This document shows, in pieces, positions 4,848 to 51,018 of a DNA stretch of 64,000 nt (the first letter of the stretch is position 1; every line of letters begins with the position of its first letter). Source of the DNA: an uncultured Ruficoccus sp. (GTDB taxonomy: Bacteria > Verrucomicrobiota > Verrucomicrobiia > Opitutales > Cerasicoccaceae); the NCBI GenBank assembly GCA_965140785.1, contig OZ223517.1, positions 17,484 to 81,483 of the forward strand, read 5' to 3'. The position numbers and the translations under genes are program-made. Below the pieces are notes generated by a model. That model did no database searches. It had not been told where the DNA came from and worked only from the letters and a program-made list of their open reading frames with translations.

Positions 4848-4851
4848 AAAG

Positions 4852-34259: not shown

Positions 34260-34301
34260 ATTGTGTACCAGTCCCCTAGGTCAATCTACTCATCTTACAT
34301 C

Positions 34302-35995: not shown

Positions 35996-36766
35996 TTACT
36001 TGCGAAAGCGACGGCGCAGAGCCACGAAGGCCAGGGCCAGACCGCCAGCAATAGCAGCGTAGGTGGAAGGCTCCGGAACAACGTTCCCCAATATCTGGAC
36101 ATTGTCGATATTCAGAGTGTTGGAAGCCCCCAGACCGCTCACCGTGCCACGGATGAAGAACTCGCTGCCCGCGCCTGCGGCGGTCAGGTCAACGGATTCG
36201 GCGATACCACCGGAGCTTTCGGAAGCGGTGATATCCTGGCTGCCGAGGCTGAGCCATCCACCTTCAGTATTGAAGGAGATTTCCCACAGGATGCTGACGG
36301 TGATGCCCCCACCGTTTGTGATGGACACACCATATGTCAGCGCCTCCGGATCATAGATATCGCCACCCGACAGAGCATTCACGGCAAACGTAATGGAGCT
36401 GCCATTGGCAAGCGGCATCAGCTGCATAGCTGTGTTATTGAGTGGCAGTTCATCCAACGGGCCACGATCATCGGAGCTCGACAGAGAGCGGTTTTTGTCA
36501 ACATCTGAGAATTTCACACCCACAGAGTTGTCGATAAAACCGTTCTGCAATTCGGAAGAGCCATACTGGCCATCCATATGAAGGGTCGCATTCGCGCTCC
36601 CCCCCATATTCGCGTCACCGGTCACGTCCGACCAATTGGATTCCACCGTGAGATCGGTGTAGGTAAAGTTACCGAAATCCCATCCAGCAACTAGGATAGA
36701 GGCGTGGGCGGATATACCGCTAGCCACTGCAAGGACTGATAAGGCAATCGTCTTTTTAAGATTCAT
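35996..36766 (-). CDS. PEP-CTERM (exosortase-sorted) surface protein
   Basis: Signal peptide; C-terminal VPEPSTYAAIAGGLALAFVALRRRFRK. Confidence 0.95.
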   Translation of the reverse strand: MNLKKTIALSVLAVASGISAHASILVAGWDFGNFTYTDLTVESNWSDVTGDANMGGSANATLHMDGQYGSSELQNGFIDNSVGVKFSDVDKNRSLSSSDDRGPLDELPLNNTAMQLMPLANGSSITFAVNALSGGDIYDPEALTYGVSITNGGGITVSILWEISFNTEGGWLSLGSQDITASESSGGIAESVDLTAAGAGSEFFIRGTVSGLGASNTLNIDNVQILGNVVPEPSTYAAIAGGLALAFVALRRRFRK

Positions 36767-36786
36767 GTTGGTAATTGTTTTTCTGG

Positions 36787-36816
36787 GCAGTCTGGCGGAA
36801 TCAACCGCCAGACTGC
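36787..36816. other. Intergenic 12-bp perfect stem-loop without U-tract
   Basis: GCAGTCTGGCGG-AATCAA-CCGCCAGACTGC. Confidence 0.7.
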
Positions 36817-36837
36817 GGTTAAGCGTAGAGTATCGAA

Positions 36838-38415
36838 TTAGTCGAGGTTCTGAGCGGCGGCATTATCAACCAGCACACCACGCAGGTTCAGGGCCGTCCA
36901 ACCGGTGGTGAACAGCGGAGCCAGAGTATCCGGCGGGAACGCTCCGATGTAGTTGACGGAGCTGAAGAAGGTGTTCGTCACCGGCACGCCGGCGGCAGGC
37001 AGAATCACAGCGCCGCTGAGCGGAACCGGGTTCAGGCCATTGGATACGGTCTGGTCATTGGCGAGACCGCCATTGGCAGCGCCAAAGAGCGGGTTGGTAC
37101 CGACAACGTTCTTCTGCGCACCGGGGGTGATCCCCGTGTTGTTGTTCAGGAAGGCATCGGCAATGGAGTTCGCACCGATGTTGTTGGCGACGTTACCGGC
37201 CACATTGTACCAGAGGGTACCGGCGACATTCAGCGTACCGGCCTGAGCGCGAGCCTGCGGGTTGAGCGAAGGGAAGCCGACCGTGGTGGACAGCGTGCTG
37301 GCGCTGGTCTGAATATTGAAGACGTCCGTCTTAGTGCCGCCGTAGGCAAGGATCGAGTTGAAGAAGTTACCACCGAAGCCTTCCTTCATGTCGAGAAAAC
37401 CGCCGAAGTCGTTGCTGTTCGGGCCGAACATGGTGATGTTGTAGATCGTGGGGCAACCGAAAGGCTGACCGGCAGGTACAATGTTGGCCGGGTCTTCACC
37501 GTCCCACTCACCCAGCTTGTCAGCGGAGATGCCGCTAGCGTTGGGAGTGTAGTTGCTGGCGATGATGAAGCCAAATTGAACGAGACCGGTATAACCCTGG
37601 TCCAGGTCGAGGCCGTCATCGTCGAAGTAGCTAAGTATGAAGTACTTCAGATTTGCGGTACCACCAAATATTTCGATGCCATCGTCACCGGAGCAGTAGA
37701 TGTCGATGTGGTCCAAGCGAGTGCCCGAACCGACGCCGCCGAGGGTCAGGCCCTGCTGTTCTTCGTCCGGGTCGGTGGTATTACCGGTGTGACGGATCGA
37801 GACATAAGCGATGCTGCCGCTGCTGTCATTGGGCAGAAGACCGCCATAGATAGTGCGGGAGTCATTCTGGGTGTAACCTTCGATGTAGGCGGTACCAGCT
37901 ACACCGGTGGGGCTGCTGCTGCGGTTGACAGTCGAGTAGCCCAACAGGGTAACGGCGCCCCAGAGGTTGACATTGTCGTTGGTACCGTCACTCGGGGGGA
38001 GCGGGGCAGTCTTGGGATCGGCGTCCAGGAAGGCATCACCCGTTGTCCAACGCTCGCGGTTGGTGTCAGCGGCAGTCGTGAAAATGATCGGAGAGCTGGG
38101 AGTACCCACAGCGTAAATTTCGCCCCCGCGGGTAACCACGAGGCTGCCCGGCACGTCAGAAGCCGACAGCTGCGGCTGACCGCGCACAATCGTACCAGGT
38201 TGGATGGTCAGGGTCACACCCGGCATGACGAAGGTGTTCCCCTGCAGGATGTATTCATTATCCGAGGTCAGCGTCATATCCTCGGTGATATTGTATTCAC
38301 CAACAGAGGGGCTGGTGATTTCCGAAAAGGTCGCATTGTCCAAAGAAACAATGCCGGCAAATGCGGAGCCAGCCATCAGGACCGAACTTGTTAATAGCGT
38401 AAGCTGTTTGTTCAT
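36838..38415 (-). CDS. Secreted pectin-lyase-like beta-helix protein of the family typically paired with TonB-dependent receptors
   Basis: Signal peptide; LTIQPGT, GSLVVTRGG.I.A.GT..SPIIFT, WGAVTLLG, DSSGSIAYVSIRH.G, GLTLGGVGSGT, DDGIEIFGG, DDDGLDLDQGY.G. Confidence 0.8.
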   Translation of the reverse strand: MNKQLTLLTSSVLMAGSAFAGIVSLDNATFSEITSPSVGEYNITEDMTLTSDNEYILQGNTFVMPGVTLTIQPGTIVRGQPQLSASDVPGSLVVTRGGEIYAVGTPSSPIIFTTAADTNRERWTTGDAFLDADPKTAPLPPSDGTNDNVNLWGAVTLLGYSTVNRSSSPTGVAGTAYIEGYTQNDSRTIYGGLLPNDSSGSIAYVSIRHTGNTTDPDEEQQGLTLGGVGSGTRLDHIDIYCSGDDGIEIFGGTANLKYFILSYFDDDGLDLDQGYTGLVQFGFIIASNYTPNASGISADKLGEWDGEDPANIVPAGQPFGCPTIYNITMFGPNSNDFGGFLDMKEGFGGNFFNSILAYGGTKTDVFNIQTSASTLSTTVGFPSLNPQARAQAGTLNVAGTLWYNVAGNVANNIGANSIADAFLNNNTGITPGAQKNVVGTNPLFGAANGGLANDQTVSNGLNPVPLSGAVILPAAGVPVTNTFFSSVNYIGAFPPDTLAPLFTTGWTALNLRGVLVDNAAAQNLD

Positions 38416-38453
38416 TTAGTGTATCTAGTTAGGGTTATGAAGAAAGAGTCTGC

Positions 38454-38509
38454 ATTGTAGGGCTAGCGTGCGACACCCCGATGGCATACGTGTTACAATA
38501 TCGTGACAA
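38454..38509 (-). promoter_or_regulatory. Pho-box-type promoter for the beta-helix/PEP-CTERM genes
   Basis: Minus strand: TTGTCAC-N4-TTGTAAC-N4-ATGCCAT-N4-GTGTCGC (11-bp period), then exactly 10 bp, then TACAAT (-10). Confidence 0.75.
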
Positions 38510-38781
38510 AGACTCGGGCAGGATGCGCCTCACGAAGCGCGACCGGGCCGATAGGCCCGATAATCATCCGTTTTCCACTGTTCAATTGTCCGCCCGAACG
38601 ACATCCGGGAAGCACATTTAGGATGAAGTCCTGACATGAAAGGAATAACTCCGGATTCGCCTAAAAGCCTGAGGCGGGCTGGATCAGACGATAATTTATA
38701 GCCCGGAAGAGAAGCCTCTTAAACGGAACAGGAATAAAAATAATCGAAGAAAAGCGGTGGTTCTGAGCCCAAAAACTCACC

Positions 38782-41700
38782 CTAGAACGTGTACTCCAGT
38801 GCGAAACGATAGCTCTGTCCGACACGATAACTTGCTCGGTTTACCGTACTGTTTGTGAGACTCTGGTCGTAAATTATACCCCTCGGGCTGTCGGTGATAT
38901 TCTCGACCGAAAATTTAAAAACGAGGTTATCCGTAATGTTTTGGTTAAACGTCAAATCGAGTTCGTAGAAGGAATCGGTAAATTGATCGATGCTCAGGTC
39001 GGCGCCGGAACCAACGGCGGAAAGCACCTCGCTCTGCGAGAAATATGAAAGCGTAATGGCTGTTCCCCAATCGGGATTATTGTAAGTGATATACGCATTT
39101 ATAATCCACTCCGGCTGGTCAAAAAGCCGCCGGGTAGTAGGCAGGTTCTTGTTACCGTAAGGCGGCCCGTCCCCCCCTACGAAAGGTCCAGACACATTGG
39201 AATCACCCGAGCCCGTTGTGCCGAAGAAATTAAAATAACTGTCAAGCACGTTTTGGGGATAGCCGACTTTGGCATCGATCATACTATAGTTAGCCCCGAT
39301 AGAGAAATTCTCCAGTTCATCGGTGATGAAGCTCAAGCCCGTGACCGCCTCAAACTCCAGACCCTTAACGGTAGCCGTATTCGGGTTGTTAAAAAAGGTA
39401 AGAATCGATTGGTCCGTCTGCTGATCGACGATGACGATCTGCTCAATCGGGTTCTGGATCGTTTTATAGAATGCCGAAACCGATACCATCCCTTGGTCCC
39501 AGAAATGATACTCAAGCTTCACGTCCATGCTTTCGACGTCAGAGAGCTTGAGCTGAGTATTACCCATGACGACGTCTCCAGTACCCAGCTCACGAGAGAA
39601 ATACGGTGAAAGCTCACGGAATGACGGCTGGGCAATCGTCTGGGAATACCCGGCACGCAAAACCCACTCGTCGGTAATATCGTAAGTCACCGTTACGGCT
39701 GGTAGCGCGTAGAGCCGATTGATATCACCGGGCTCGCTGGCGTCAGTAAATCCAATCAGCTGCCCATTCGTAATCCCGTCGTTAGGATTCGATCCCAATG
39801 CGCGTTGATCAAGGACATCCTGCAGCGTAACAAAAGGCGTGAGCTGGGCATTCCCGGTGGAATCGATTTGAAGATTACCAAAACGGGCTCCCCCCGTAAT
39901 CCGGAAACTGTCCGTCAGGTTAAACTGCATCGTCGTATAGCCGGCCAACTCCATACGGCGGTTATCAGCGAACGACGCAAAAGCCTGGGCAGAGGTACTG
40001 TTGGAGCCGAGCAGCGAATCGACTGCGTCCTGCATCGATCCGGTCGGTGTCGTTTGTCCGGCAGATATCTGGGTATCAATCTGGTTGGTAGTACGCTCAG
40101 CCAGATTCCAAAAACCGCCCCATTTGACTGCCCCTGAAAGCCAATCCGAGCCGGAATCGTCCCAGTTGTAGTTAAAGTCGCTCCGGGCTCCGTAGGAGTC
40201 TTCGTTGATCAACCGCCAAGTCTCCAACATCGCTGGTTCCGATCCCCCCACGTTCTGTTGGGTATCGAAAAAATAGCCAGGGGTGTTGCCGGTCGAGCCA
40301 GTATCATACACGTATGTCGTGACGGATTCGTGTGGCGTGTTGCTGGTCGTGTTGGCGATGGTCGCCCCCCATGAAGCTTCGAGATCATCCAGTTCGTCGA
40401 AAAGATGATTGCCGCCAATCTGGTAAACATACAGTTCCCGCTGCTCGTAGGAAATCGTGTCCTCAGTCAGCGTCAGTGAGTCATTGCCGCCGCGCCCGAT
40501 GATGTTACGGGCTGTCTGGCCGAAGAAGGGCACGCCCCAGCCGCGGTCACGCAACTGGTTGGCTGGAGCCGCAAAAGAATTGAAGCCGGGGGGCAGATAG
40601 CCGTTATCCTTACGCTGGACGAAGTCATTGCCCGATAAACTGGCCAGGAAGTTGAACCACACCCGATTATCACCTTCAGGATCGAGGTCATAAGTCAGTC
40701 CGGTCAACATGCTGATCAAGACATTAGCCTCTGACTGGGTGACATCAAAATGCAGTGCGCTGGCTGACAGTTCCTTGAGATAAAGCGAGCCCGGCGCGTT
40801 GTTAAAAGTCGGGCTGCCAAATCCCGGAGGAGCCAGCACGTACTGACTGGGCAGGGCGTAGCGGTTCTGCTGCTCCCCAAACTGCGTCGTATAGGAACTA
40901 TCATAAGTGCTGGAAAAGATAAACCCAAGGCGGCGGTTGTTGAATTCCGTGGAGCCGGATACACCAGCGCCAAAAGTTAGCCCCAAAGGGGCGGAGGCGG
41001 TTATGGGCACCACATTATTACTGGTGCTGGCACGAATTTGGGAGATCGGAGCATTTGGATTGGGAGGGGGTGGACGATTATGAGCACCATCGGCCAACAC
41101 ATCGTCAAACCCTGAGGAAGGATCCTCTAAATAGCTGTCCAGAGCATTCGAGTTAAACCGAAAACCACCCTTGAACCAGACAACCGTCTCGTCCGTCGGG
41201 GTTTTGGTATTCAATTCAAAAGCAGCCCCGGAAGAGTTACTGGGCATATTCGGCAGGAAATCCTTGTTGGTAACCACACTGGAAATAATGGAGGTCGGAA
41301 ACAGGTCTAGTTGGAGCCCTTGGCGAACCGGGTCCGGACTGGGTACCGGCAGCCCGTTGAGCAGCGTACTATTGTAGCGGTCCCCCAGACCACGCACGAC
41401 GGCGAACTGGCCCTCGACCACGGTCACCCCCGGCATGCGCTGAATGATGTCCGCGACATCGGTACCTCCGAATTTCGCGAAATCTTCCGAGGAAAGGTAA
41501 TCAATCGAACCGGAAGACTCGCGCTTGAGGTTCTCCAGAAATGAGACACTGTTGCTATCGGAACTCGCGGTCACCTCGAAGGCTTCCATGTCAAAAATGT
41601 CACTGGCTGTTTCAGCCGCCTTCAGGGGAAGCACGTAATCGGCCTGGGTGGTTTTACCGGCGGTCACTTTCACCTCGCGTAGCGTGGAGTATTCATAGCC

Positions 41701-42129
41701 GGTCTGAGAGAAATCGATAGAATAGGTTCCTGTCGGGATATTCTCGAATCGATATGCGCCCTCTTCATCCGTGCTGGCCACCCGCTTGCGCAGGTTTTCG
41801 GTAGAGAGCTCCTCCTTAAGTACCTCCGGCCAATTCAGCACGACATTCACCCCCTGTATCGGATCTCCGCTTTTCATGTCGTAGACATGTCCCTCGACCA
41901 CGCCGCTATCCAGCCCCTGGGAGGATTGAGACGCAGTGGGAGCTGCCTCTTGGGTTGGAGCGGGAGCTGAGCTCTCTGCCTGGACGTTAGCAATCAGCGG
42001 AAACACAGCGACGCATAGCAATCCCAGCAGGGGCTTCATCCCCCCCGAAAAACGTTCTGTAAAATAGTGTCTTAAATGTTGCATCAGTAGCTTTAGGTAT
42101 GGCCAACAGGACGACCTTCGCACTCGCAT
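38782..42129 (-). CDS. TonB-dependent receptor with N-terminal carboxypeptidase-regulatory-like domain
   Basis: GHVYD...GDPIQGVNV, STDEEGAYRFENIPTGTY; plug RMPGVTV...VRGLGDRYNSTLLNGLPVPSPDP; QPSFRELSP, GN..L; C-terminal FALEYTF. True start may be downstream (42084 or 42039). Confidence 0.93.
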   Translation of the reverse strand: MRVRRSSCWPYLKLLMQHLRHYFTERFSGGMKPLLGLLCVAVFPLIANVQAESSAPAPTQEAAPTASQSSQGLDSGVVEGHVYDMKSGDPIQGVNVVLNWPEVLKEELSTENLRKRVASTDEEGAYRFENIPTGTYSIDFSQTGYEYSTLREVKVTAGKTTQADYVLPLKAAETASDIFDMEAFEVTASSDSNSVSFLENLKRESSGSIDYLSSEDFAKFGGTDVADIIQRMPGVTVVEGQFAVVRGLGDRYNSTLLNGLPVPSPDPVRQGLQLDLFPTSIISSVVTNKDFLPNMPSNSSGAAFELNTKTPTDETVVWFKGGFRFNSNALDSYLEDPSSGFDDVLADGAHNRPPPPNPNAPISQIRASTSNNVVPITASAPLGLTFGAGVSGSTEFNNRRLGFIFSSTYDSSYTTQFGEQQNRYALPSQYVLAPPGFGSPTFNNAPGSLYLKELSASALHFDVTQSEANVLISMLTGLTYDLDPEGDNRVWFNFLASLSGNDFVQRKDNGYLPPGFNSFAAPANQLRDRGWGVPFFGQTARNIIGRGGNDSLTLTEDTISYEQRELYVYQIGGNHLFDELDDLEASWGATIANTTSNTPHESVTTYVYDTGSTGNTPGYFFDTQQNVGGSEPAMLETWRLINEDSYGARSDFNYNWDDSGSDWLSGAVKWGGFWNLAERTTNQIDTQISAGQTTPTGSMQDAVDSLLGSNSTSAQAFASFADNRRMELAGYTTMQFNLTDSFRITGGARFGNLQIDSTGNAQLTPFVTLQDVLDQRALGSNPNDGITNGQLIGFTDASEPGDINRLYALPAVTVTYDITDEWVLRAGYSQTIAQPSFRELSPYFSRELGTGDVVMGNTQLKLSDVESMDVKLEYHFWDQGMVSVSAFYKTIQNPIEQIVIVDQQTDQSILTFFNNPNTATVKGLEFEAVTGLSFITDELENFSIGANYSMIDAKVGYPQNVLDSYFNFFGTTGSGDSNVSGPFVGGDGPPYGNKNLPTTRRLFDQPEWIINAYITYNNPDWGTAITLSYFSQSEVLSAVGSGADLSIDQFTDSFYELDLTFNQNITDNLVFKFSVENITDSPRGIIYDQSLTNSTVNRASYRVGQSYRFALEYTF

Positions 42130-42161
42130 GAAGAGAGCAGCTCCTCACTGGCGCAGGGCCG

Positions 42162-42968
42162 CTACAGGACAGGCACAGGATGCTGCTGCTCGTAGTTCAG
42201 CACCTCTTTTCTGATTTTGGTCTCGGCTGCCTCGGCATTTTCGAGCCCCGCCCAAGAAATACGAGTTATGACATATCCGTTTCGATCGACGATCACGACG
42301 GGCCACTTTTCAGGATGATGGGCCCAGGCATGTTGATAACCTTTGGAAAGAAAATACATCATCGTTGGGGCCGTAGGCGGATTGGCCTCCATATCCGCAT
42401 CCATCTCATCCTTGGTAGCATCCAGCGGGACGATAAGGGGTTGTACCCGGCAGACTGGGTCCACCACGGAATTTTGGCTCATTCCGGCAATTAGCTGCGA
42501 GAAATTCTCCCACTGCAGCCCACCGATGTCGGCGTAGGCAATGGCGTAATATCTGCCTGTGTCATACTGCCCAGGTGTGCATTGCAAACGTGTCTCGGGA
42601 TCGAAAAACGACCGTGAGATCAAGCTGGAAAAAAGCCCTCCATCTTCCTCTCTGGATCCGGGAACCACTGTCTTCGCCTGCTCGTAAAAATCAGTAACGT
42701 CAGGATCCAGCCGCATGAGCCCGTAACGTCCGAAGTCAACGAGGATAACATCCTCCTCTGCACGAATAAACACACCTCGACGGCCCTCCTGCAAGGTCTC
42801 ATCAGTGGGAGAAACCACCGGCTGCACAAGGGCAACAGATTCGGGCCAGTAATCCGAGCTACTCAGGTAATCGACTGCCCGTGTCTCTTCAGCCCATAGG
42901 CCGGGTTGAGATAGTCGCAGCGCGCATATCAAGAAGGGCACGAGTGATTTGACTCTCAAAGTTTTCAT
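42162..42968 (-). CDS. Secreted hypothetical protein, possibly a CxxC-less thioredoxin-like fold
   Basis: Signal peptide; C-terminal YYAIAYAD...LIVPLD...WPVVIVDRNG.VI pattern; no CxxC. Confidence 0.55.
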   Translation of the reverse strand: MKTLRVKSLVPFLICALRLSQPGLWAEETRAVDYLSSSDYWPESVALVQPVVSPTDETLQEGRRGVFIRAEEDVILVDFGRYGLMRLDPDVTDFYEQAKTVVPGSREEDGGLFSSLISRSFFDPETRLQCTPGQYDTGRYYAIAYADIGGLQWENFSQLIAGMSQNSVVDPVCRVQPLIVPLDATKDEMDADMEANPPTAPTMMYFLSKGYQHAWAHHPEKWPVVIVDRNGYVITRISWAGLENAEAAETKIRKEVLNYEQQHPVPVL

Positions 42969-42973
42969 AAAAA

Positions 42974-43723
42974 TCAGTCCATCATATTCCACTGCTTTTT
43001 TTGCTCAGCGGTGAAGGCGTTGTTGTTCTGGGGGAGCGCATATACGCGCCGAAGCGAACGGTTGGCCGCCACCGTGTTCTCTTCACGGATAGCCACCGAT
43101 TTGGGCTGAGAACTATCAACGAGCGATCCAGATTTCGCAGACTGACGACGAGCAGCATGTGCCAAGCGACGCAACTCAAGCGGCACCTCAATCCCACTAC
43201 GAATCAGGACGGGAATATACTCCGGAGCATTCAATGCGGCCTGAGCTTTAGCCGGAAGAGAGTTGAAGGGAGTTAGAGGACTTCCATCCGGTTTGACTTC
43301 CGGATAGTGGTAGCCCGGACCAGTCATCTCGATGTGATCTCCATCCGACCCCAAGAGTTTGAGGGTGTGTACTTGCCCATCGACATTCAGCTTAATGACA
43401 TGGCTCTGTTCATCGTAACCAGCTACCGTCCCTCCGAAGGAAGTCCGGTCCCCCACCTCCACCCAAGTCGATTTGCTGCTGGCAGCGTCATACAGGCTGA
43501 AGAACCAAGCGTCACCCATGTTCATAACGCCTTTAAATTCAATGCCCTCCAAGGACTTAGTGGCAGGAGCGACAGCGGGTAGAACGTTCATGCTTTTTTG
43601 CTCATGGTAGCCCGACGGTAAAAACGGGGAGGCCTCAAGCAGCGAGGTCGCTGCCCCATGCGTCATCACAGCCAAACCAGCCGCGATCCCGCACATAAAG
43701 CCCCTCTGGAAGAAACTCGACAT
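42974..43723 (-). CDS. Exported protein with GspC/PilP-like domain
   Basis: Signal anchor, SPFLP, then IEFKGVM...FFSLYD...STWVEVGD...TVAGYD...IKLNVDGQVHTLKL beta-sandwich pattern. Confidence 0.55.
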   Translation of the reverse strand: MSSFFQRGFMCGIAAGLAVMTHGAATSLLEASPFLPSGYHEQKSMNVLPAVAPATKSLEGIEFKGVMNMGDAWFFSLYDAASSKSTWVEVGDRTSFGGTVAGYDEQSHVIKLNVDGQVHTLKLLGSDGDHIEMTGPGYHYPEVKPDGSPLTPFNSLPAKAQAALNAPEYIPVLIRSGIEVPLELRRLAHAARRQSAKSGSLVDSSQPKSVAIREENTVAANRSLRRVYALPQNNNAFTAEQKKQWNMMD

Positions 43724-43748
43724 AGTAATAACTACGTAAGCGCGCTCA

Positions 43749-45143
43749 TTAACTGTTTTTCGCGGCCTTCTCGACGCGCTCCAAAAATTGCGCCACACGC
43801 TCGTCGTTCTTGTATTGGAGGGCCGTCCGAAGAAGGGGAATGGCCTCCTTAAACTTGCGCTCGCTGACCTTAATACGCGCCTGGCTCAATAAGGACTTGA
43901 ATTCGAACCCATCGACCTTAGCCGCACTCTCGTATAAGAACATCGCCTTGGCCGTGTTGCCCGCTGACTGCTCATAGGAGGCCAGTTCCATGAGCGCCTC
44001 ACCGTTGAGCGGATCACGCTCGATAATGTGTGCGAAGGCCTCCTTCGCCTGCTCATCGTTGCCTTGCGCACGCGCAATGTGAGCCTTGAGCAAAAGCAAT
44101 TCTACCTGATCCTCCTCGGTCAAATCCTGATAGCGATCTTCAAGGGTTCCTATCAGGGACGAAGCCTGCTCCCCCCGACCGGCCATGGTCAGGTACTTTG
44201 CGGTGCGCAGACCCGCATCCTTGTATTGGCCCTTATTATCCTGGCTCAAAAGCTCCTCGTAGACCTCGACAGCCTTATCATAGATGCGAAGGCTCATATA
44301 AATATCGCCCAGCAGCTTCAGGCTGGCGGGTTTGAGTTCGCCGAGGCGGCGAACGACCTCTATATTGACCGCCGCCTCCCGCGGACGATCCATCCCCAAC
44401 GCAGTATTAACCTGATAAAGCCACAGGTCGGCGTTGCTCGGATCGGCTTCAATGAGACTCTGAAAAAGAGTATTGGCCTCGGGATATTCTTCTTGACCAA
44501 GCAAAGCCTGAGCCAGTCCCAGCTTCCAGTCCTGAACCTCAGGCTCCTGAAGGATCGCCGCGCGGTAGGCTGATTCGGCCGCCACATAATCTTCGCTGTC
44601 CAGATAGCAATAGCCCAACAGTCCGTAGCTGCGCCCGTCATAATCGCCTAATTCAATCGACCGGCTCAAATGCTCCGCACCGGCAGCAAGCTCCTGCTGC
44701 TGCATTTTGAGCAGGCCGAGATTTTTATGAGCACGGCGATAGTCCGGGAACTTCTCGACCGCCATGGCGTAGTACTTCTCGGCATTCTCCAAATCGCCGT
44801 CCTGAAAGTAGAGGTTGGCCAGGACAAAACACAAAGCAGCGCTACTGTCCTCGTCCATCTCCTCCTGCAGTTTCATCGCAGCGGCCTGAGGATCGACCTT
44901 GATCAGATCGACAAGATCTCGGAACAATTCTACTTCATCATCGGTAACCTCTGGCTCGATCTGTGAATTAAAGCCATAGCTGCCCAGGAAGCGTTTAACG
45001 AAGGCCGGATTATCCCAAAATTGCTCGGCATAAACGTTGCCGGGTTCGATTCCGGGCTTCACGTCCTGTCCATAGGAAATGACCGCGGTCAGACTTCCAA
45101 GGGCCAGTGCCAGTACGATGTTAAGCATCAGTTTATTGTTCAT
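43749..45143 (-). CDS. Tetratricopeptide repeat protein (TtpD-like, TonB-system associated)
   Basis: Signal peptide and many TPR units (LANLYFQDGDLENAEKYY, AHKNLGLL, LLGYCY). Confidence 0.88.
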   Translation of the reverse strand: MNNKLMLNIVLALALGSLTAVISYGQDVKPGIEPGNVYAEQFWDNPAFVKRFLGSYGFNSQIEPEVTDDEVELFRDLVDLIKVDPQAAAMKLQEEMDEDSSAALCFVLANLYFQDGDLENAEKYYAMAVEKFPDYRRAHKNLGLLKMQQQELAAGAEHLSRSIELGDYDGRSYGLLGYCYLDSEDYVAAESAYRAAILQEPEVQDWKLGLAQALLGQEEYPEANTLFQSLIEADPSNADLWLYQVNTALGMDRPREAAVNIEVVRRLGELKPASLKLLGDIYMSLRIYDKAVEVYEELLSQDNKGQYKDAGLRTAKYLTMAGRGEQASSLIGTLEDRYQDLTEEDQVELLLLKAHIARAQGNDEQAKEAFAHIIERDPLNGEALMELASYEQSAGNTAKAMFLYESAAKVDGFEFKSLLSQARIKVSERKFKEAIPLLRTALQYKNDERVAQFLERVEKAAKNS

Positions 45144-45796
45144 TTTACGTTAAATGGGATGGGAATGCGCACGCGGGTGCGGACTTTCTCCCCGTTCTTG
45201 GTTCCAGGTTCGAATTTCCAGCGTTTAACCGCCTCCACGGCGGCATCGGCAAAGTCCTTATGCGTAGACTCGATCACCTCGATGTCTCGCACCTTTCCGT
45301 TTTCATCGACGATGAACATCAGCTTGACGAAGCCGCTGATCTTCTTGCGCATGAGCGCACGCGGATACTTCGGCATGGGCTGCGTGGTGGCGCGTGGCTG
45401 CTTGTCGAGGTCGTCGAGATCGAAGATAGACGAAATGTCCAGGTCGGCCTTCCCCAGGCCCATGCCCGGCAGGGCGAAGTCGCCCGCGAGATCGCCCCCC
45501 ATACCGGGGTTAAGCGAGAGCTCAAGTTGTTCGAGCGAAAGCTCCGGGGTCTCTTCCATTTCCGGCGGCTCTTCCTCCTCCTCGGGGGGCGGCGGCTCTT
45601 CCTCTATCTGGAGCTCTTCGGGAGGCGTGAAGGCGATCTCCATCTGATCGACGCTGCCCTCCTCCGGCTTTTCGTCGGCGATGAACTGCGTGAGCGGCAC
45701 CAGCAGGAAGACGATAAAGGTGAAGACCGCTCCCAGGATCAGCCCCAGAACGACGTGCCGGGCCTTGGTCTTCGTCGGATGATAAATATGCGTCAT
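45140..45796 (-). CDS. tonB: Energy transducer TonB
   Basis: TM anchor, EPPPPEEEEEPP linker, PKYP...G.V.L.F.VDE.G.V, AVKRWKFEPG. Confidence 0.93.
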   Translation of the reverse strand: MTHIYHPTKTKARHVVLGLILGAVFTFIVFLLVPLTQFIADEKPEEGSVDQMEIAFTPPEELQIEEEPPPPEEEEEPPEMEETPELSLEQLELSLNPGMGGDLAGDFALPGMGLGKADLDISSIFDLDDLDKQPRATTQPMPKYPRALMRKKISGFVKLMFIVDENGKVRDIEVIESTHKDFADAAVEAVKRWKFEPGTKNGEKVRTRVRIPIPFNVK

Positions 45797-45804
45797 GATC
45801 GGCC

Positions 45805-46209
45805 CTATTCCTTGAACGCGGAGAAGTTGACCTCGCCGGCGCCGGCCAGTTTGGCCTCCGTGACGACGCGGTCGAAAACTTCCACGCTGGCGTGCTCGTC
45901 ACACTGGATGTTGACGGGCACCGTGTTCTTCATGAGCGCCTGCTTGATGCGCGGGGCCACGCCCCCCACCCCGATCTCTTTGCCGCCGTAGATCACACGG
46001 TCGTCCGCGGTGATGGCGATCTGGATACTGTTTTTGTTCAGCTTGCGGTAGGTCGTTACGTCGGGCTTGTGCACGTCGGCTCCGGCCTCGTCCACAAAGA
46101 CGGTCGTTACGATAAAGAAGATCAGCAGGATAAAGATACAGTCGATCATCGGAGACAGATTAATCTCCGCGACGGTGTCCTGCTCTTCGGTAATGCTTGC
46201 GCGTGGCAT
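45805..46209 (-). CDS. exbD: Biopolymer transport protein ExbD
   Basis: EINLSPMIDCIFILLIFFIVTT. Confidence 0.93.
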   Translation of the reverse strand: MPRASITEEQDTVAEINLSPMIDCIFILLIFFIVTTVFVDEAGADVHKPDVTTYRKLNKNSIQIAITADDRVIYGGKEIGVGGVAPRIKQALMKNTVPVNIQCDEHASVEVFDRVVTEAKLAGAGEVNFSAFKE

Positions 46210-46219
46210 GGCTAGTAAA

Positions 46220-46618
46220 TCACTTGGGTACGTAGTGCACGTTCTGGGCTCCGGCGTTGACGACCTCGGCGTACACCTTGGCCAGCAAACCAAACTCCCC
46301 CTTCTTCTCGGCTTTGACGCTCACGGGTACATCCTCGCCTACCATGAGCTGTTTGATCTTGGGGCCGACACCGTTGACGCCGATATCCTCGCCCTCGTAC
46401 ATGACCTTGCCATCCTCGGTCACGAGAAACTCGATCGTCTCGTTCTCATCCAGCGAGACAGAAGCAGCCGCCTGCGGCTTGTTCACATCGAGCCCGACCT
46501 CCTCGACGAAGACAGTCGTGACGATGAAGAAAATCAGCAGGATGAAGATACAGTCGATCATCGGAGACAGATTGATCTCCGGCGGGGCTTCGTCCTCTAC
46601 GATGCGGTGGCGTGACAT
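46220..46618 (-). CDS. exbD: Biopolymer transport protein ExbD (second copy)
   Basis: Same N-terminal EINLSPMIDCIFILLIFFIVTTVFV motif. Confidence 0.93.
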   Translation of the reverse strand: MSRHRIVEDEAPPEINLSPMIDCIFILLIFFIVTTVFVEEVGLDVNKPQAAASVSLDENETIEFLVTEDGKVMYEGEDIGVNGVGPKIKQLMVGEDVPVSVKAEKKGEFGLLAKVYAEVVNAGAQNVHYVPK

Positions 46619-46633
46619 GCGGTGTAAAAAGTT

Positions 46634-47218
46634 CTAGGCGGCTTTGGAAACGGTCAGGACGATGGACTCCAGACGGGCCAGACAGGCCTCCAACGCGTGT
46701 TTTTTACGCTGAATAACCATGACGATGAACACGCCCGGCAGCGCGATGGTCAGGCCGGTTTGCGTGGTGATGAGGGCCTTGCGGATACCGTCGGCGATCA
46801 CACCCGCGGTCTCGGCGCCGCCGGACTGGGAAATGCCGTAAAAGGTCAGCAGCATCCCGATGACGGTGCCCAGCAGTCCCATAAGCGGAGCTGTGGCGAC
46901 CAGCGAGGAGATGAAAATGACACGACGGTCGATCATGCCAGTGATGCTCATGCGGACCTCGTCGAAGCGACGGCGGATGTTTTTCTGCATCCCCTCACCG
47001 AGCATGGCATACTTAATAATCTCACCCACGCGGCCTTCGCCCTGCTCAGGGTCATTGATCCATTTCTTCCACTCTTCCTCGTTCACCTTTCCCAGATTGG
47101 TGGTGTAGAGGTAGAGCAGCACCTGGAACGCGGTCGCATAAGTCAGAAATGCCAGGAGCGCCAGCGGGATCATTACCCAGCCCCCACCATTCCAGATGTC
47201 TATGATTTCTTCCCACAT
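46634..47218 (-). CDS. exbB: MotA/TolQ/ExbB proton channel
   Basis: GGWVMIPL, APLMGLLGTVIGM, GIRKALITTQTGL. Confidence 0.92.
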   Translation of the reverse strand: MWEEIIDIWNGGGWVMIPLALLAFLTYATAFQVLLYLYTTNLGKVNEEEWKKWINDPEQGEGRVGEIIKYAMLGEGMQKNIRRRFDEVRMSITGMIDRRVIFISSLVATAPLMGLLGTVIGMLLTFYGISQSGGAETAGVIADGIRKALITTQTGLTIALPGVFIVMVIQRKKHALEACLARLESIVLTVSKAA

Positions 47219-47231
47219 GGACGTGTACCCG

Positions 47232-48623
47232 TTACTTGATCAGACTCAGACCGTTGAGGAAGGCGATGGCAGCCTGCTCCATCTCCGAAAGCTTACGCTT
47301 GGCAAAGCGGGAAAGCGCGCCGTGCAGCAGCAGGGCCGGAATGGCCACAATGAGGCCGAACTCGGTCGTGACCAAGGCGACGGAAATCCCCTTCGAAAGC
47401 GACTGGGCATCGCCCGTACCGAAGATCGTGATGAGGTTGAAGGTGCTGATCATCCCGATAACCGTCCCAAGCAGACCGAGCAGCGGAGCGGCGGCGGCGA
47501 TCAGCGCGATAAAGGGGAGAAAGCGCTCGAGGTTCGGACGGCACTTGAGGATGCGCTCGTACATGAGCTCTTCGATCACGCCGCGCTTTTCCTTGGCGTG
47601 AACAGCCCCACAGGCGAGCATATCTCCCACTGCGCCCTTAACCTGGTTGGCGCGCGCTTCGGCCTCTTCAGGCTTACCTTCGGCCAGCAGATCGAGCGTA
47701 TCCTGCACATCCTGCACCGAAGCGGTCTTGAAGCTCATGATCTCGACAACCTTGAACAGCCCCATCAGAATGGCGACCACGCCCAGGGCGATAATGACAT
47801 AACCGACAGAGCCGCCCTTCTCGATGTGCTCGGCGATCGAGTCGCTGGAACGCTCGACCTTGATCGCCTTACCCAGCGTCGTGTCGGCCGGCAGCGTGCC
47901 CTCGCCTTCTTGTATCAACTGAGCCAACCCTGTGTTGAACTGCGCGGGGAGCTGGATGACAATCGGGTCGGCGGTATTAACCTGTGTCTCGGCCTGGCCG
48001 ACCACAAGACCGTCGTTACTGGCAAAGAATACGGTGGGACCGAGCACGAGAAAGGTACCCTGCTCCAGTACGCCCTGATTGGATAGCGCCTCCCCGGCGA
48101 AGGTGTACCCGCCGATCAGCTCGCCCATGCGCGTGATAGCGACATCGACCGCCTGGATCTGCGCGGCAAGTTTACCCTCCTGGTCCAGATTCGGATTCGT
48201 CGGGGCGAACTTGGCTGCATTGAGCATATCTTCGTACTTGGTGTACTCACTGATAGGCATCTGCGCCTCAAGGTTTCGCACGTACTCGTTGAGCAGCCCG
48301 GCGATGTACTCGTTCGACTTGGACATCGACTCGACCTGTTTCTTGAGCTGATCGAGGTCGAGCGTGCGGCTGTCGCGAGAACGCAGCAGGCGATCGTATT
48401 CGCGCTGACGCTCCAGCACCTGATCTTCCAAGTCGCTGATCTCCTTGGACAGCGGAATCTTCTCCTGCGCGATCTGGCTGCGTAAATCGGAAAGCTCACC
48501 CAGTGCGGCTTTCAAATCGGCGTCGGCCATGGATTGAACCTGATGAATGTCCTGCGCACAGGCAAAGTGCGAGGCAGCTAGAACGGCGAACACCCCCGCC
48601 AGGGTTTTGATCATGTATTTCAT
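47232..48623 (-). CDS. Long ExbB-family protein with periplasmic coiled-coil (TtpC-like)
   Basis: Signal peptide, coiled coil, then APLLGLLGTVIGMISTF...GISVALVTTEFGL. Confidence 0.9.
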   Translation of the reverse strand: MKYMIKTLAGVFAVLAASHFACAQDIHQVQSMADADLKAALGELSDLRSQIAQEKIPLSKEISDLEDQVLERQREYDRLLRSRDSRTLDLDQLKKQVESMSKSNEYIAGLLNEYVRNLEAQMPISEYTKYEDMLNAAKFAPTNPNLDQEGKLAAQIQAVDVAITRMGELIGGYTFAGEALSNQGVLEQGTFLVLGPTVFFASNDGLVVGQAETQVNTADPIVIQLPAQFNTGLAQLIQEGEGTLPADTTLGKAIKVERSSDSIAEHIEKGGSVGYVIIALGVVAILMGLFKVVEIMSFKTASVQDVQDTLDLLAEGKPEEAEARANQVKGAVGDMLACGAVHAKEKRGVIEELMYERILKCRPNLERFLPFIALIAAAAPLLGLLGTVIGMISTFNLITIFGTGDAQSLSKGISVALVTTEFGLIVAIPALLLHGALSRFAKRKLSEMEQAAIAFLNGLSLIK

Positions 48624-48644
48624 CTTGAGCGCGAAATTTAAAAA

Positions 48645-49418
48645 TTACTGGATCGTGACCGGGACCGGAACGAACTGGATGTCCTGATCGGTGTTTTCGT
48701 AGTAGGCGCGCATCTTGCTCACACGCGGCGCGATACTGTTGTCCTGGGTAAAGACCCAACCGTCCTGGCTCGGGACGCCGTAACCGGCCACATGGCCGAG
48801 CTCATCGACATAGAAAGCCGCTCCGAGCCCCCAGTAGAAAGTCCACACCTGCACCTGCTTGTCGCTGCCTTCCACCTGCTGCGTCTCACCGACGAAGGTG
48901 ATCATGTTGTTGAATTTCTGCGCCTGGGAAAGGATCCCGACGATGTTTTGCACCCGCTGGCCGAGGGAAGCCTCGGTCTCCTCCGGATTCTCCGGAATAC
49001 GCACCAGAAGCGGGTCGATCATATCCAGCAAAGGCTGCGGATAATAAGCGGTCTGTGCCACCAAGCGCTGTTCCAATGAGGTGATGATGTCTGTCAGACT
49101 CTTGTTCGCACGCATGAAGGCGGCTCGCTGAAGCAGCAGTTCGTTACGCTCATTATCGGCCTGGGTCGCCGTCTCTTCCATTTCCTTGATCTTCTCGTCA
49201 AGGGCCTCGAGTTGCTTTTCCAAAAGCTCCTTGGTATCGGCCAGCGACGCTTTATCGGCCGTCCAGTCGTTCTTCTCCTCGGAGATCAACTGCTGGGTCT
49301 CGACCCATTTATCGAGCTTGGATTTCGTCTGCTTGACGGGCGATTGCTCCTGCCCGAACAGCGGGGCCGCCGCCAGGCAGAGCATAGGCATTAAAAGGTG
49401 CTTCAGCTTCATAGACAC
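48645..49418 (-). CDS. DUF3450 family protein (TtpB-like)
   Basis: Signal peptide, long coiled coil, C-terminal FYWGLG..FYV...GWVF...FVPVPV; first gene of a TtpB-TtpC-ExbB-ExbD-TonB-TPR order. Confidence 0.8.
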   Translation of the reverse strand: MSMKLKHLLMPMLCLAAAPLFGQEQSPVKQTKSKLDKWVETQQLISEEKNDWTADKASLADTKELLEKQLEALDEKIKEMEETATQADNERNELLLQRAAFMRANKSLTDIITSLEQRLVAQTAYYPQPLLDMIDPLLVRIPENPEETEASLGQRVQNIVGILSQAQKFNNMITFVGETQQVEGSDKQVQVWTFYWGLGAAFYVDELGHVAGYGVPSQDGWVFTQDNSIAPRVSKMRAYYENTDQDIQFVPVPVTIQ

Positions 49419-49558
49419 AAAAGGTTCAGGAAAGCTGCCTACTGATCAAAAAAAGCCCCCGCTGACTAGGCTTCTAATGTTAAAGTTCGGTAACGAACCG
49501 GTATTTTTGTAACAAATGGGTACCCACAAAAAACGCCCCAGCCCAATGCCGGAGCGCC

Positions 49559-49587
49559 TTTACAGCCTTGTTACAATTCCGTTGCAA
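49559..49587 (-). promoter_or_regulatory. Pho-box-like triple repeat upstream of the TonB operon
   Basis: Minus strand TTGCAAC-N4-TTGTAAC-N4-CTGTAAA (11-bp period); a second phased pair TCGTTAC-N4-CTTTAAC lies at 49479-49496. Confidence 0.6.
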
Positions 49588-51018
49588 TCAACCCGCGTGA
49601 TCGCCCGTCGGAAGGGCTTTACAGGGCAACATGGCGGCGTCGCGCATCCCGTGGATAATCTTTTTATCCGCCGGGCAGAAAGTGGCGAGTATCCCGTTCA
49701 AGGACACTTGCTCGCCCTCAATCATATAAAACGGACACAGGCGCAGGCGCCCCTGCATCTCAGCGGGCTCGCCCTCCTCGTTATAAACCGGGTGCGGCGT
49801 GCGGCGCGGCTTGTGGTAATCCTGTAACACATGGAGCGTCGAGTCGGCCATTTCGACGGCGTTGGCGATGCCTTCCTGCCAATCGGTCTTAGACACGTCC
49901 GAGCCGAGGACGACACTGCGCGCCCCCCAGGCCAGCTCGTGAAAGCCGCTCGCTTTGATAATCAGGTTGCGCTCTTTCTGCGTGGCCTCGCCCAGTTCCT
50001 CCCAGCGGCGGATGGGCTTGCCCTGGGCGTGCGGGGCATCGAGCACGGCGTTGGGTGGCAGCTCCACCGGGTCCATAATCCACGAGTGCGGCACGATCTT
50101 TTTCAGCGTCTTGTAGGAACGCTTGGGCAGGTTCTCGCGCCAGAAGTCATCCAGCACGTGGTGGTGCAGCAGAGCGAGGTTGAGCTTCTCCTCCTGGTAG
50201 GCTTTCATCGGAGGCGTGACGACAACGTCGCCACTCTCAGCCGCCTCCAGGATGTATTGAGCCGTCGATACATTGCCCAGGTCGAACAGCTCGAAAAAGC
50301 GGTAAATGATGTCGATGGGTTCGGGGTTGCCGTCCACATTGACACACAGCGTCCGGCCCAGCGGCATAATGTCGGTCGGGTGGTAGGCGTGGACCCGCTT
50401 GCCCTCCTCGCGCAGACGCGCGGCCAGGTAGTCGAACTCGGGCCGGTAGGTGTCGGCCTCGTCGCTGACCACGATGGCGATGAGCGGGTTGGGTTTGTCG
50501 GGCGTGGTGGCGGCCAGGGCGTTGTAAAAAGCGTGACGCATGCCGGTAGCCCCCCCGATGACGGCGGAGTCGTCCCCCTGCGCATAGAGGCCATTTAAAA
50601 AGTCGGTCAGGCCGATGCCGCCGGGCACGGAGTCCATCTCGGTCAGGGCGAAGCCGTCCTCGGTCAGCAACAGGTCGGGACGCAACACGTGGGGCATCAG
50701 ACCCTTGAACTGCTCGTGCCGGGCGTGTTCGATCACGCGCCGGGGCTTGCCACGGTCGAGGTAGTCGGCCACCCACGGGGCGACCAGCTCTTTGTTGCGC
50801 AGGAGGTTCTTCCCCTGCCAAGAGCGCCGGTAGAGCGTGTCCAGGGCGAGATAAAAATCGCGGCAGGCCTCGCCGATCTGCTCGATCTCGCGCACCTGAT
50901 TGGGCGTCAGCGGCCAGGCCTCGGGCGAGAGGCGCCAGGTCTTGTCTTCGAACAGCGGCTGAGCCTCCAGGGAGGCTTTGAGGGTCTGGTAATCAAGCGC
51001 AGGCATGGCAGTCGGCAT
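49588..51018 (-). CDS. ATP-grasp-like (glutathionylspermidine synthase / circularly permuted ATP-grasp related) protein
   Basis: LRPDLLL...ALTEMDSVPGGIG, IIYRFFELFD, EEKL.LALL, LIIKASG...WGARSV. Confidence 0.65.
   Translation of the reverse strand: MPTAMPALDYQTLKASLEAQPLFEDKTWRLSPEAWPLTPNQVREIEQIGEACRDFYLALDTLYRRSWQGKNLLRNKELVAPWVADYLDRGKPRRVIEHARHEQFKGLMPHVLRPDLLLTEDGFALTEMDSVPGGIGLTDFLNGLYAQGDDSAVIGGATGMRHAFYNALAATTPDKPNPLIAIVVSDEADTYRPEFDYLAARLREEGKRVHAYHPTDIMPLGRTLCVNVDGNPEPIDIIYRFFELFDLGNVSTAQYILEAAESGDVVVTPPMKAYQEEKLNLALLHHHVLDDFWRENLPKRSYKTLKKIVPHSWIMDPVELPPNAVLDAPHAQGKPIRRWEELGEATQKERNLIIKASGFHELAWGARSVVLGSDVSKTDWQEGIANAVEMADSTLHVLQDYHKPRRTPHPVYNEEGEPAEMQGRLRLCPFYMIEGEQVSLNGILATFCPADKKIIHGMRDAAMLPCKALPTGDHAG

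Follow-up and report, generated by a model that had tools for sequence, protein, structure and literature searches.

Bacteria of several phyla pair a TonB-dependent receptor (TBDR) with a surface or secreted partner that is induced by phosphate starvation. Here, a gene cluster with such a pair is described from a 64,000-nucleotide stretch of the genome of an uncultured Ruficoccus sp. of the Verrucomicrobiota (this whole stretch is called the window below), and is compared with the closest described systems, whose accounts are drawn from excerpts of the cited papers and hold within these excerpts. In Caulobacter, ElpS (CC0170) is a lipoprotein of about 50 kDa that is induced by phosphate starvation, anchored at the surface and then released, and its secretion is associated with more alkaline phosphatase activity (PMC2996285, Le Blastier et al.). 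The elpS gene adjoins that of the TBDR CC0171 and a type II secretion (T2SS) cluster, and its co-occurrence with a receptor in many genomes was remarked upon; the type II system was required only for the release of ElpS, not for its surface display (PMC2996285).

Flavobacterium johnsoniae has a 'PhoBR operon', made up of the genes for PhoR (Fjoh_0543), PhoB (Fjoh_0544), a TonB-dependent transporter (TBDT) with Plug and CarbopepD_reg_2 domains (Fjoh_0545), and the 'hypothetical lipoprotein FII' (Fjoh_0546), which is a pectin-lyase fold entry (PMC8115612, Lidbury et al.). Upon depletion of inorganic phosphate (Pi), fold changes of 8.0 for Fjoh_0545 and 9.9 for Fjoh_0546 were reported, with high abundance in the exoproteome, and another protein of this kind, FI (Fjoh_3856), adjoins a further TBDT induced by Pi depletion. 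FI, FII, and FIII share 31-36% identity with Caulobacter ElpS over about half of their length, and the genes of the look-alike cluster were tightly repressed under nitrogen (N) and iron (Fe) limitation (PMC8115612).

In Bacteroides thetaiotaomicron, BT4056 was proposed as the putative lid of the non-SusC TBDT BT4055, and is predicted on its outer face (bioRxiv 10.1101/2023.03.17.533168, Price et al.). Homologues of the two are neighbours in 621 genera, and the pair is related to Fjoh_0546 (40% identity) and, distantly, to ElpS; there were few high-confidence contacts, and the excerpt gives neither genetic evidence of a functional link nor a substrate (bioRxiv 10.1101/2023.03.17.533168). A substrate of the ElpS, FI/FII, or BT4056-type partners is stated in none of these excerpts. 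As for energizers, the tonB2 operon of Vibrio vulnificus consists of ttpB2 (DUF3450), ttpC2, exbB2, exbD2, tonB2, and ttpD2 (tetratricopeptide repeat, TPR), is Fur-boxed and iron-induced, and belongs to a system that serves siderophore receptors; the Vibrio TonB3 operon begins with an outer-membrane receptor gene (PMC6957404).

The cluster of the window is probably a Pho-regulon outer-membrane acquisition system of the ElpS/FI-FII/BT4055-56 kind, in which an extended TBDR and a surface beta-helix partner are joined to a TonB2 energizer of their own, two periplasmic accessory proteins, and a PEP-CTERM protein. A preliminary description of this DNA had stated that no functional description of the full gene set was known in Verrucomicrobiota, which is too strong for the core, as the ElpS, FI/FII, and BT4055/56 pairs have been published. 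The TBDR plus beta-helix core is thus already known, while the verrucomicrobial build is new: a Pho-boxed, dedicated TonB2 motor, a cysteine-less thioredoxin-fold protein, possibly a GspC/PilP-like protein, and a PEP-CTERM neighbour replacing the lipid anchor. No literature was found on the family PF28492, to which the beta-helix protein belongs, by name, or on this gene set in Verrucomicrobia, and nothing on the cluster was found in the excerpt of a 2026 paper on phosphate and fucoidan in a verrucomicrobium.

Gene Organization and the TonB2-Type Energizer

The genome (G000; 4.36 Mb, 50 contigs, 90.85% complete) contains the window at G000:C46:17484-81483. As the preliminary description had it, twelve co-oriented open reading frames (ORFs) on the minus strand form the cluster (35996-49418) with tight junctions, which range from -74 to +71 bases with the single exception of a 366-base gap between the TBDR and beta-helix genes. 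Nine of the twelve proteins were named by a Pfam/NCBIfam scan; the copy of Pfam used lacked PF28492, hence the 525-residue protein had no match. In the direction of transcription, the genes are as follows.

48645-49418, minus: TtpB-like protein with DUF3450 (PF11932, E 5.8e-24), first energizer gene
47232-48623, minus: TtpC-like long MotA/ExbB protein of 463 residues (PF01618, E 8.9e-28, at the C-terminal residues 342-449)
46634-47218, minus: ExbB (PF01618, E 1.2e-20)
46220-46618, minus: ExbD, copy 1 (PF02472, E 1.6e-22)
45805-46293, minus: ExbD, copy 2 (PF02472, E 1.3e-23)
45140-45796, minus: TonB (PF03544, TonB_C, E 9e-21)
43749-45143, minus: TtpD-like TPR protein with a signal peptide (TPR families, e.g., PF13432, E 9e-27)
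42974-43798 (probable start 43723), minus: secreted 274-residue accessory protein, recognized by its orthologues, of a family without Pfam entry that is found across the Planctomycetes-Verrucomicrobia-Chlamydiae (PVC) bacteria
42162-42992 (probable start 42968), minus: secreted 276-residue accessory protein with a thioredoxin fold (alignment, model, Foldseek)
38782-42129, minus: TBDR of 1115 residues (PF13620, PF07715, PF00593)
36838-38415, minus: secreted right-handed beta-helix protein (Beta_helix_4) of 525 residues (signal peptide, relatives, AlphaFold2 model)
35996-36766, minus: PEP-CTERM-anchored surface protein (PF07589, 25.2 bits, cut-off 20.7)

The energizer order (DUF3450, long ExbB-like protein, ExbB, ExbD, TonB, TPR) matches the TonB2/Ttp type with one ExbD extra, and the TonB2-type reading first given to these seven genes agrees with the order of the published six-gene Vibrio operon (PMC6957404). 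Six protein types of the energizer thus stand in the identical order in both, and TonB3 also includes a receptor gene. The window cluster differs in having two ExbD genes and four extra genes, in carrying Pho-type repeats at its promoters where Vibrio has Fur-type boxes, and in placing the receptor gene downstream of the energizer, where TonB3 has it upstream (PMC6957404). Paired ExbD genes were also found in nine related loci; in the window, the TTG start called for the second copy overlaps the preceding gene by 74 bases, so that the real start is probably later. The GC content is 0.555 over the whole cluster and 0.49-0.55 across 38-45 kb, against 0.60-0.64 in the flanks and about 0.60 in most contigs, and the remark that the left part is less GC-rich than its surroundings was therefore correct.

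Pho-Box-like Repeats in the Genome and Its Relatives

Three sets of repeats lie at the promoters of the cluster.

49559-49587, minus: distal block, three 7-bp repeats in 11-bp phase (by sequence and position weight matrix)
49479-49515, minus: proximal block upstream of the DUF3450 gene, one repeat and then two in 11-bp phase
38492-38509, minus: Pho-box-like dimer within the 366-bp spacer upstream of the beta-helix gene

The repeats are oriented with the gene and comprise at least two 7-bp direct repeats in 11-bp phase, and those first noticed at two promoters are confirmed upstream of the DUF3450 and beta-helix genes. A half-site matrix was made from 33 dimers, and both strands of the genome were scanned with it; since these dimers were taken solely from the cluster promoters of relatives, circularity was avoided. 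The six best dimers of the genome belong to the cluster (three), to phoBR (two, with 18.73 and 18.28 bits), and to pstS (one, 18.22 bits). The beta-helix promoter dimer is the top site of the genome, with 21.32 bits, the dimers of the distal block (19.15 and 18.49 bits) rank 2 and 4, and the proximal block has a dimer of 15.76 bits at 49496 (phased pair 49496-49479). Six dimers reach at least 18 bits in the genome, while five first-order Markov genomes contained 0, 3, 0, 0, and 0 such dimers. The hits that rank seventh and lower form a mixed set, with sites at an amino-acid permease, a radical-SAM/B12 protein, a weak PHO4-like transporter, and others.

The pstSCAB genes were located elsewhere in the genome, where two 11-bp-phased repeats ahead of pstS are followed by 10 bases and then by TAATAT. 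The phoB-like/PhoR-like operon, in which a PAS-HisKA kinase adjoins the regulator, has four phased repeats upstream; its regulator, the best of the genome, scores 244.6 bits against a PhoB cut-off of 296 and the kinase 284 against a PhoR cut-off of 334 (NCBIfam). A simple sigma-70 scan of the region upstream of the DUF3450 gene found no minus-strand promoter.

Among 11 related loci, a scan allowing at most two mismatches found repeats upstream of the DUF3450 gene in 10 and in the spacer between the TBDR and beta-helix genes in five; three more spacers have similar repeats when judged by eye. The distal block is conserved in the same-genus loci L015, L017, and L021, and the counterpart of the proximal block in another genus has two or three phased repeats. 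The pstS promoters of two other genomes (G012, G013) carry phased repeats of the GTCAT/GTAAT/GTAAC type, and both have a quasi-palindromic site in the spacer downstream of pstS (15.2 and 20.7 bits). Six of 13 further PVC loci (L054, L056, L063, L075, L102, L115) hold sites of at least 15.5 bits, nine distinct ones in all, eight of which adjoin a pstS, DUF3450, receptor, or beta-helix gene. Judged by sequence, the repeats behave like Pho boxes, and PhoB-controlled promoters are predicted for the cluster. The original reading of the repeats as Pho boxes is supported by the sharing of the motif with pstS and phoBR, by the matrix ranking, and by its retention in orthologous promoters.

Two of the weaker matrix hits may mark further members of the regulon: one of 16.4 bits (G000:C34:139138) directly upstream of the weak PHO4-like protein of 395 residues, and one of 17.1 bits (G000:C23:21029) directly upstream of a B12-binding radical-SAM/DUF4070 protein. 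A leader element was also seen just past the repeats, about 60-100 bases before the DUF3450 start, in L013, L014, L018, L019, and L022. In it, a stretch of the TTTAACAA type is separated by about ten bases from CTAGTCAAG, with TCTGTTCTACGTT downstream of both; the element is common to one genus and shared in part by the window, and an unusual promoter or a 5' leader are possible explanations.

Synteny, Distribution and Neighbouring Phosphate Genes

The beta-helix protein has a match in 16 of 41 related genomes, the present one included, and in 11 of the 15 others of the family. A synteny survey, which the preliminary description had proposed, covered 15 loci from 14 related genomes, compared by tblastn with the window proteins; for the 274-residue gene, loci without a tblastn match were resolved from ORF position and alignment. 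The cluster genes do co-occur in relatives: the end of the TBDR gene lies at most 250 bases from the beta-helix gene in 14 of the 15 loci (3.3 kb in L026), and the full twelve-gene order, from DUF3450 to PEP-CTERM, is found in nine. In two loci of other genera (L023, L024), the set is limited to the Ttp genes, with a single ExbD, and the genes of the receptor and the beta-helix protein.

In a wider species collection, 639 stretches encode a beta-helix relative, from which 70 loci were kept. Most are of Bacteroidota, and the others come from Verrucomicrobiota, Planctomycetota, Brocadiaceae, Myxococcaceae, Zixibacteria, Hyphomicrobiales, and Gammaproteobacteria. In 49 of the 70 loci, the strand of the beta-helix gene carries a TBDR related to that of the window at a distance of at most 1.5 kb (before the beta-helix gene in 19, after it in 30); such a receptor lies elsewhere in the locus in seven and was undetected in 14, several of them at contig ends. 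Ttp-type genes stand beside the TBDR/beta-helix module in eight of the 70, all from PVC bacteria.

These 70 loci were also searched by tblastn (E<=1e-15) with PhoB, PhoR, PstS, Ppk1, and the regulator pair of one locus, and matches were obtained in 18. A regulator 55-79% identical to that of the Flavobacteriaceae locus L122 adjoins the module in eight other loci, while PstS-like genes were found in four of the 70 loci and Ppk1 in two. When 16 neighbour proteins from seven loci were scanned, a PHO4-family transporter was seen next to the regulator and beta-helix gene in three Bacteroidales loci. In all five genomes tested, the regulator neighbouring the module is the top match of the genome to the PhoB model, with margins of 14-66 bits over the runner-up (213/178, 211/145, 218/171, 213/172, and 245/231 bits). 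The link between the module and phoBR across phyla is an independent tie to phosphate.

The comparison with Pi-induced TBDR/lipoprotein pairs of Bacteroidetes, also proposed at the outset, showed agreement in gene order: the order in L122 (beta-helix gene, TBDR, regulator, kinase) is that of Fjoh_0543-0546, and in a second Flavobacteriaceae locus (L101) the identical four genes are adjacent, but the regulator pair lies on the opposite flank and is transcribed divergently. The window thus shares with the F. johnsoniae PUSIV/PUSIII clusters a TBDT with CarbopepD_reg and plug domains and a pectin-lyase-fold partner, and these two loci match the order. In the Bacteroidota clusters, however, the partner is a surface lipoprotein or carries the tail of the type IX secretion system (T9SS) and precedes the TBDT, and phoBR is included, whereas the dedicated TonB2, thioredoxin-fold, and PEP-CTERM genes, all present in the window cluster, are lacking.

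Two further observations may be added. Genes of the Beta_helix_4 family are often repeated in tandem, with two to four copies beside one receptor gene (L055, L058, L061, L079, L107, L108, and others). At L063:11874-15939 (Limisphaerales), T2SSK and T2SSF genes follow directly after the beta-helix gene, which recalls the T2SS cluster beside elpS.

The Receptor and Its Beta-Helix Partner

The TBDR has a CarboxypepD_reg domain (residues 78-167), a Plug (202-288), and a barrel (525-1078); its start is probably an internal Met ahead of the signal peptide. Its best NCBIfam model is TIGR01782 (TonB-Xanth-Caul), with 212.5 bits, under the cut-off of 310.

Of the 8000 candidates scored as relatives of the beta-helix protein, 984 reach E<=1e-3. 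Homologues with genus names include proteins of Cerasicoccus, Ruficoccus, and Coraliomargarita. PF28492, which is Beta_helix_4 of Pfam 38.1 and is called 'pectate-lyase like' in the protein atlas, is recorded on all 120 relatives listed and on the nearest protein-atlas clusters; among the named entries of these 120, none is from B. thetaiotaomicron or F. johnsoniae. The AlphaFold2 model, obtained from a 29-sequence alignment, has a mean predicted local distance difference test (pLDDT) of 87.9 and a predicted template modeling score (pTM) of 0.91. A sequence-profile search of the PDB with the alignment gave no match up to E 1, nor did Foldseek find any for the model in the PDB at E<=1e-3, and the fold was clear only in an all-against-representatives structure alignment. 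The best VIA-align match there is 7chu (Z 21.5, root-mean-square deviation 3.0, 267 residues aligned), followed by a tailspike (Z 20.6), an alginate epimerase/lyase (20.4), NosD (19.4), and the pectate lyase Pel9A (18.1), within a Z range of 15-21.5 for beta-helix lyases, epimerases, polygalacturonases, and tailspikes. As no match stands out, the fold points to no specific function.

Among the invariant columns are E179, E219, D244, E248, D266, D267, D270, D272, E303, and D305, and these acidic residues map to successive strands of the model, where they may be read as an acidic ladder on one face of the helix. The secreted beta-helix with acidic DDG motifs that had been proposed from the sequence is, thus, substantiated by the model, its Z score, and the presence of the motifs. 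Inspection of the N-terminus showed a signal peptide without cysteine, so that the window protein has no lipobox. Ten ORFs of relatives were inspected, and a lipobox-like Cys is present in seven, all from Bacteroidota, with an acidic run after it in five, which fits surface exposure; the Bacteroidota relatives also include T9SS-tailed proteins.

By fold class, neighbour, and gene order, we infer that the window pair is of the ElpS/FI-FII/BT4056 kind. It shares with ElpS, induced by Pi starvation and secreted or surface-bound, the position beside a TBDR, and relatives of ElpS lie in the pectin-lyase superfamily according to Price et al. ElpS differs as a lipoprotein with adjacent type II secretion genes, while the window protein, without a lipobox, stands beside a TonB2 energizer and a PEP-CTERM protein. 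The likeness to BT4055/BT4056 consists in the neighbouring genes of a non-SusC TBDT and a pectin-lyase-superfamily partner; PVC bacteria are not mentioned in the excerpt of that work (bioRxiv 10.1101/2023.03.17.533168).

Accessory and PEP-CTERM Proteins

The 274-residue protein has orthologues at the identical position in nine loci and belongs to a large, mainly PVC family (1296 representative proteins at E<=1e-3). It may be GspC/PilP-like, as suggested by three leads: a weak PDB profile match to the GspC structure 2lnv (E 0.36), a T2SSC match of 19.5 bits, under the cut-off of 27, in one of 40 relatives, and weak protein-atlas scores of 0.77-0.80 to XpsN, T2SSB, HofP, and PilP clusters. Paralogues elsewhere in the genome sit among unrelated genes and offer no functional clue.

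In the 276-residue protein, a signal peptide precedes a small beta-barrel at the N-terminus and a thioredoxin-fold domain at the C-terminus (model pLDDT 84.9). As a word-based homology search gave only two proteins, the alignment was made from orthologues in syntenic loci. Foldseek returned 53 matches for the model at E<=1e-3, the best being 4grf (E 1.9e-5), and every match listed is a thioredoxin-fold protein, including ResA, Sco, and TlpA complexes. No cysteine is conserved in the 12 aligned sequences, and a CxxC site for redox chemistry or metal binding is accordingly absent; W41, P42, D228, N230, and G231 are among the invariant residues. On this evidence, the protein has a thioredoxin fold but is not a redox-active member, in agreement with the initial label of 'CxxC-less thioredoxin-like'.

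The PEP-CTERM gene is kept downstream of the beta-helix gene in 11 loci, and PEPS...RRR is invariant in 12 sequences, 11 of which are the orthologues aligned. Exosortase family matches are found at three places in the genome. Because the beta-helix proteins of PVC bacteria are without the anchors of other phyla, it is proposed that the PEP-CTERM protein may tether them.

Flanking Genes and Other Features of the Window

The flanking genes are unrelated to the cluster.

31871-34123, plus: polynucleotide phosphorylase (PNPase; NCBIfam)
35042-35839, convergent to the cluster: ORF, SurE-like by eye
49588-51018, directly upstream of the cluster: conserved ORF of a cytoplasmic protein of 476 residues, with a terminator-like hairpin at its end

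The 476-residue ORF has no Pfam or NCBIfam family match; it is 82-92% identical in four related genomes, always immediately upstream of the cluster. Between the PNPase gene and the SurE-like ORF, the GC content dips to 0.49-0.51 (34000-35000), in a region that includes a plus-strand ORF of 336 residues with a sole, weak match (TMEM175-like, E 0.0044). Near the start of the window, a perfect tandem repeat of 11 bases (about 4761-4782) comes after tRNA-Thr (4852-4927, minus), and then a 472-residue ORF (3058-4476), which is primase/replication-like by eye and has no Pfam match; positions 2324-4927 are possibly a mobile element integrated at the tRNA gene. Elsewhere in the genome, contigs C9, C20, C28, C41, and C44 have a GC content of 0.28-0.47, against about 0.60 in the others, and may be foreign DNA or contamination.

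Interpretation and Alternative Explanations

Phosphate acquisition is the best supported of the functions considered, and induction of the cluster by Pi limitation is predicted from the promoter motif. At low phosphate, PhoB would bind the phased repeats before the DUF3450 and beta-helix genes and turn on both transcription units. The beta-helix protein would be exported and held at or near the surface, perhaps by its PEP-CTERM neighbour; holding by another protein is proposed because the beta-helix protein has neither the lipid anchor nor the T9SS tail of its relatives. The invariant acidic residues would line a groove that might, speculatively, bind or cut a phosphorus-bearing polymer or complex, and the receptor, driven by TonB2, would import the product for periplasmic phosphatases and PstSCAB.

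Several observations weigh against the assignment to phosphate acquisition. On the side of regulation, all the PhoB-like regulators lie under the NCBIfam cut-offs (209-245 bits against 270-296), and the distal block is enclosed by the end of the 476-residue ORF, at its stop codon, and the terminator-like hairpin of that ORF. In Escherichia coli, a Pho box lies about 10 bases ahead of the -10 element and replaces the -35 element. Such spacing is present at pstS in this genome, but the layout differs at both cluster promoters, and at the beta-helix promoter the best conserved -10-like element comes about 30 bases after the box. The pstS promoter of a same-genus relative (G001) has only one clear repeat and one degenerate one, and in seven of the 13 further PVC loci no site reaches 15.5 bits. 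A strict IUPAC two-repeat pattern occurs eight times in the genome (two overlapping at phoB, and one each at pstS, the beta-helix promoter, and window position 4782, with three others), which is about the number expected from composition by a rough estimate; the case for Pho boxes, therefore, rests on the positions of the sites and on the matrix ranking. The site at 4782, which adjoins tRNA-Thr and the primase-like gene, was rejected as a regulon member and is probably a chance occurrence. On the side of function, the Caulobacter TBDR CC0171 was reported as constitutive, its deletion left ElpS production intact, and no change of cell phosphate was detected (PMC2996285). Import of phosphorus through such a receptor is not demonstrated in the cited excerpts on Caulobacter, Flavobacterium, or Bacteroides.

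The Caulobacter results bear on another explanation, which we consider unlikely: that the beta-helix protein is released from the cell and acts as an activator or scaffold by which phosphatase activity outside the cell increases, while the receptor and TonB2 are co-regulated with it but serve signalling or an unrelated uptake. The rise in alkaline phosphatase activity that accompanies ElpS secretion would be accounted for, as would a neighbouring TBDR reported as independently regulated and dispensable for ElpS production (PMC2996285), and in the window the beta-helix gene does have its own promoter block after the 366-bp spacer. Nevertheless, a related TBDR accompanies the beta-helix gene in 49 of the 70 loci, and Price et al. 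count 621 genera with such neighbours, a pairing that would be difficult to account for if the two had no common task. In the window, the motif is present at both transcription units, and the TBDR is in one tight gene string with the full energizer, which argues for active import over signalling. It is quite improbable, too, that the cluster is a carbon-oriented polysaccharide utilization locus, whose beta-helix protein would be a lyase or hydrolase of acidic glycans, whose TBDR would take up oligosaccharides, and whose repeats would bind another OmpR-family regulator. Such a function would suit the fold of pectate and alginate lyases, polygalacturonases, and tailspike depolymerases (Z 15-21), a DD-containing motif that presumably resembles those of glycosidases, and the best, sub-threshold NCBIfam model of the TBDR, TIGR01782, whose members we take to be mostly carbohydrate transporters. 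Yet the identical motif occurs at pstS and phoBR, ranked together with the cluster at the top of the genome, the regulator adjoining the module is the best PhoB candidate in each of the five genomes tested, and the Pfam scan found no glycoside hydrolase, sulfatase, or sugar transporter in the cluster. Moreover, the look-alike Flavobacterium genes respond to Pi depletion and are repressed under N and Fe limitation (PMC8115612).

Uptake of iron or another metal, as in the Fur-controlled Vibrio TonB2 system, is very improbable. The TonB2 gene order of the energizer, whose Vibrio counterpart is iron-regulated and serves siderophore receptors (PMC6957404), speaks for it, but the best Fur-consensus matches (10-11 of 19 positions, against a window mean of 10.1) do not rise above background, a weak test, as the consensus may not be that of this lineage. 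The Pfam scan found no genes for siderophore synthesis, reductases, or periplasmic iron-binding proteins in the cluster, and the neighbours of the module elsewhere are phoBR, PHO4, PstS, and Ppk. The preliminary description had inferred a phosphate-regulated outer-membrane machine, with export or display of the beta-helix or PEP-CTERM protein by the TBDR/TonB complex as its alternative. The machine gains support from the motif shared with pstS/phoBR and from its fit to the published look-alike clusters, while no supporting evidence was found for the alternative, which is extremely improbable. Export draws solely on the possibly GspC/PilP-like protein and on the T2SS genes beside elpS and at L063; against it, the receptor has the plug and barrel of an ordinary importer, the Caulobacter T2SS was required only for release and not for display (PMC2996285), and relatives in other phyla carry export signals of their own (either a lipobox and acidic tail or the domain for T9SS).

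A broader proposal, tentative and on balance doubtful, is that the TBDR and Beta_helix_4 pair is a phylum-spanning, TonB-powered means of harvesting phosphorus from phosphorylated or phosphate-bridged polymers, or from metal-bound phosphate held by the acidic ladder. The PVC bacteria would then have added a Pho-controlled TonB2 motor, a cysteine-less thioredoxin-fold protein as periplasmic receiver, and an exosortase-anchored tether.

Implications

The TBDR/beta-helix pair is present in hundreds of genera, and in phosphate-starved Flavobacterium its relatives rank among the proteins with the strongest induction and the highest abundance, with induction in Caulobacter as well, according to the excerpts cited above. 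The two conserved periplasmic proteins and the PEP-CTERM neighbour are candidate partners of the pair, and the Pho-box matrix of this lineage can be used for charting its regulon. The substrate, once found, would fill a gap in the phosphorus acquisition of marine and soil heterotrophs. If the pair does harvest phosphorus across phyla, the verrucomicrobial operon would be the most complete natural parts list of the machine, and this route would cover a substrate class that is ignored by the classical phosphatase/Pst models.

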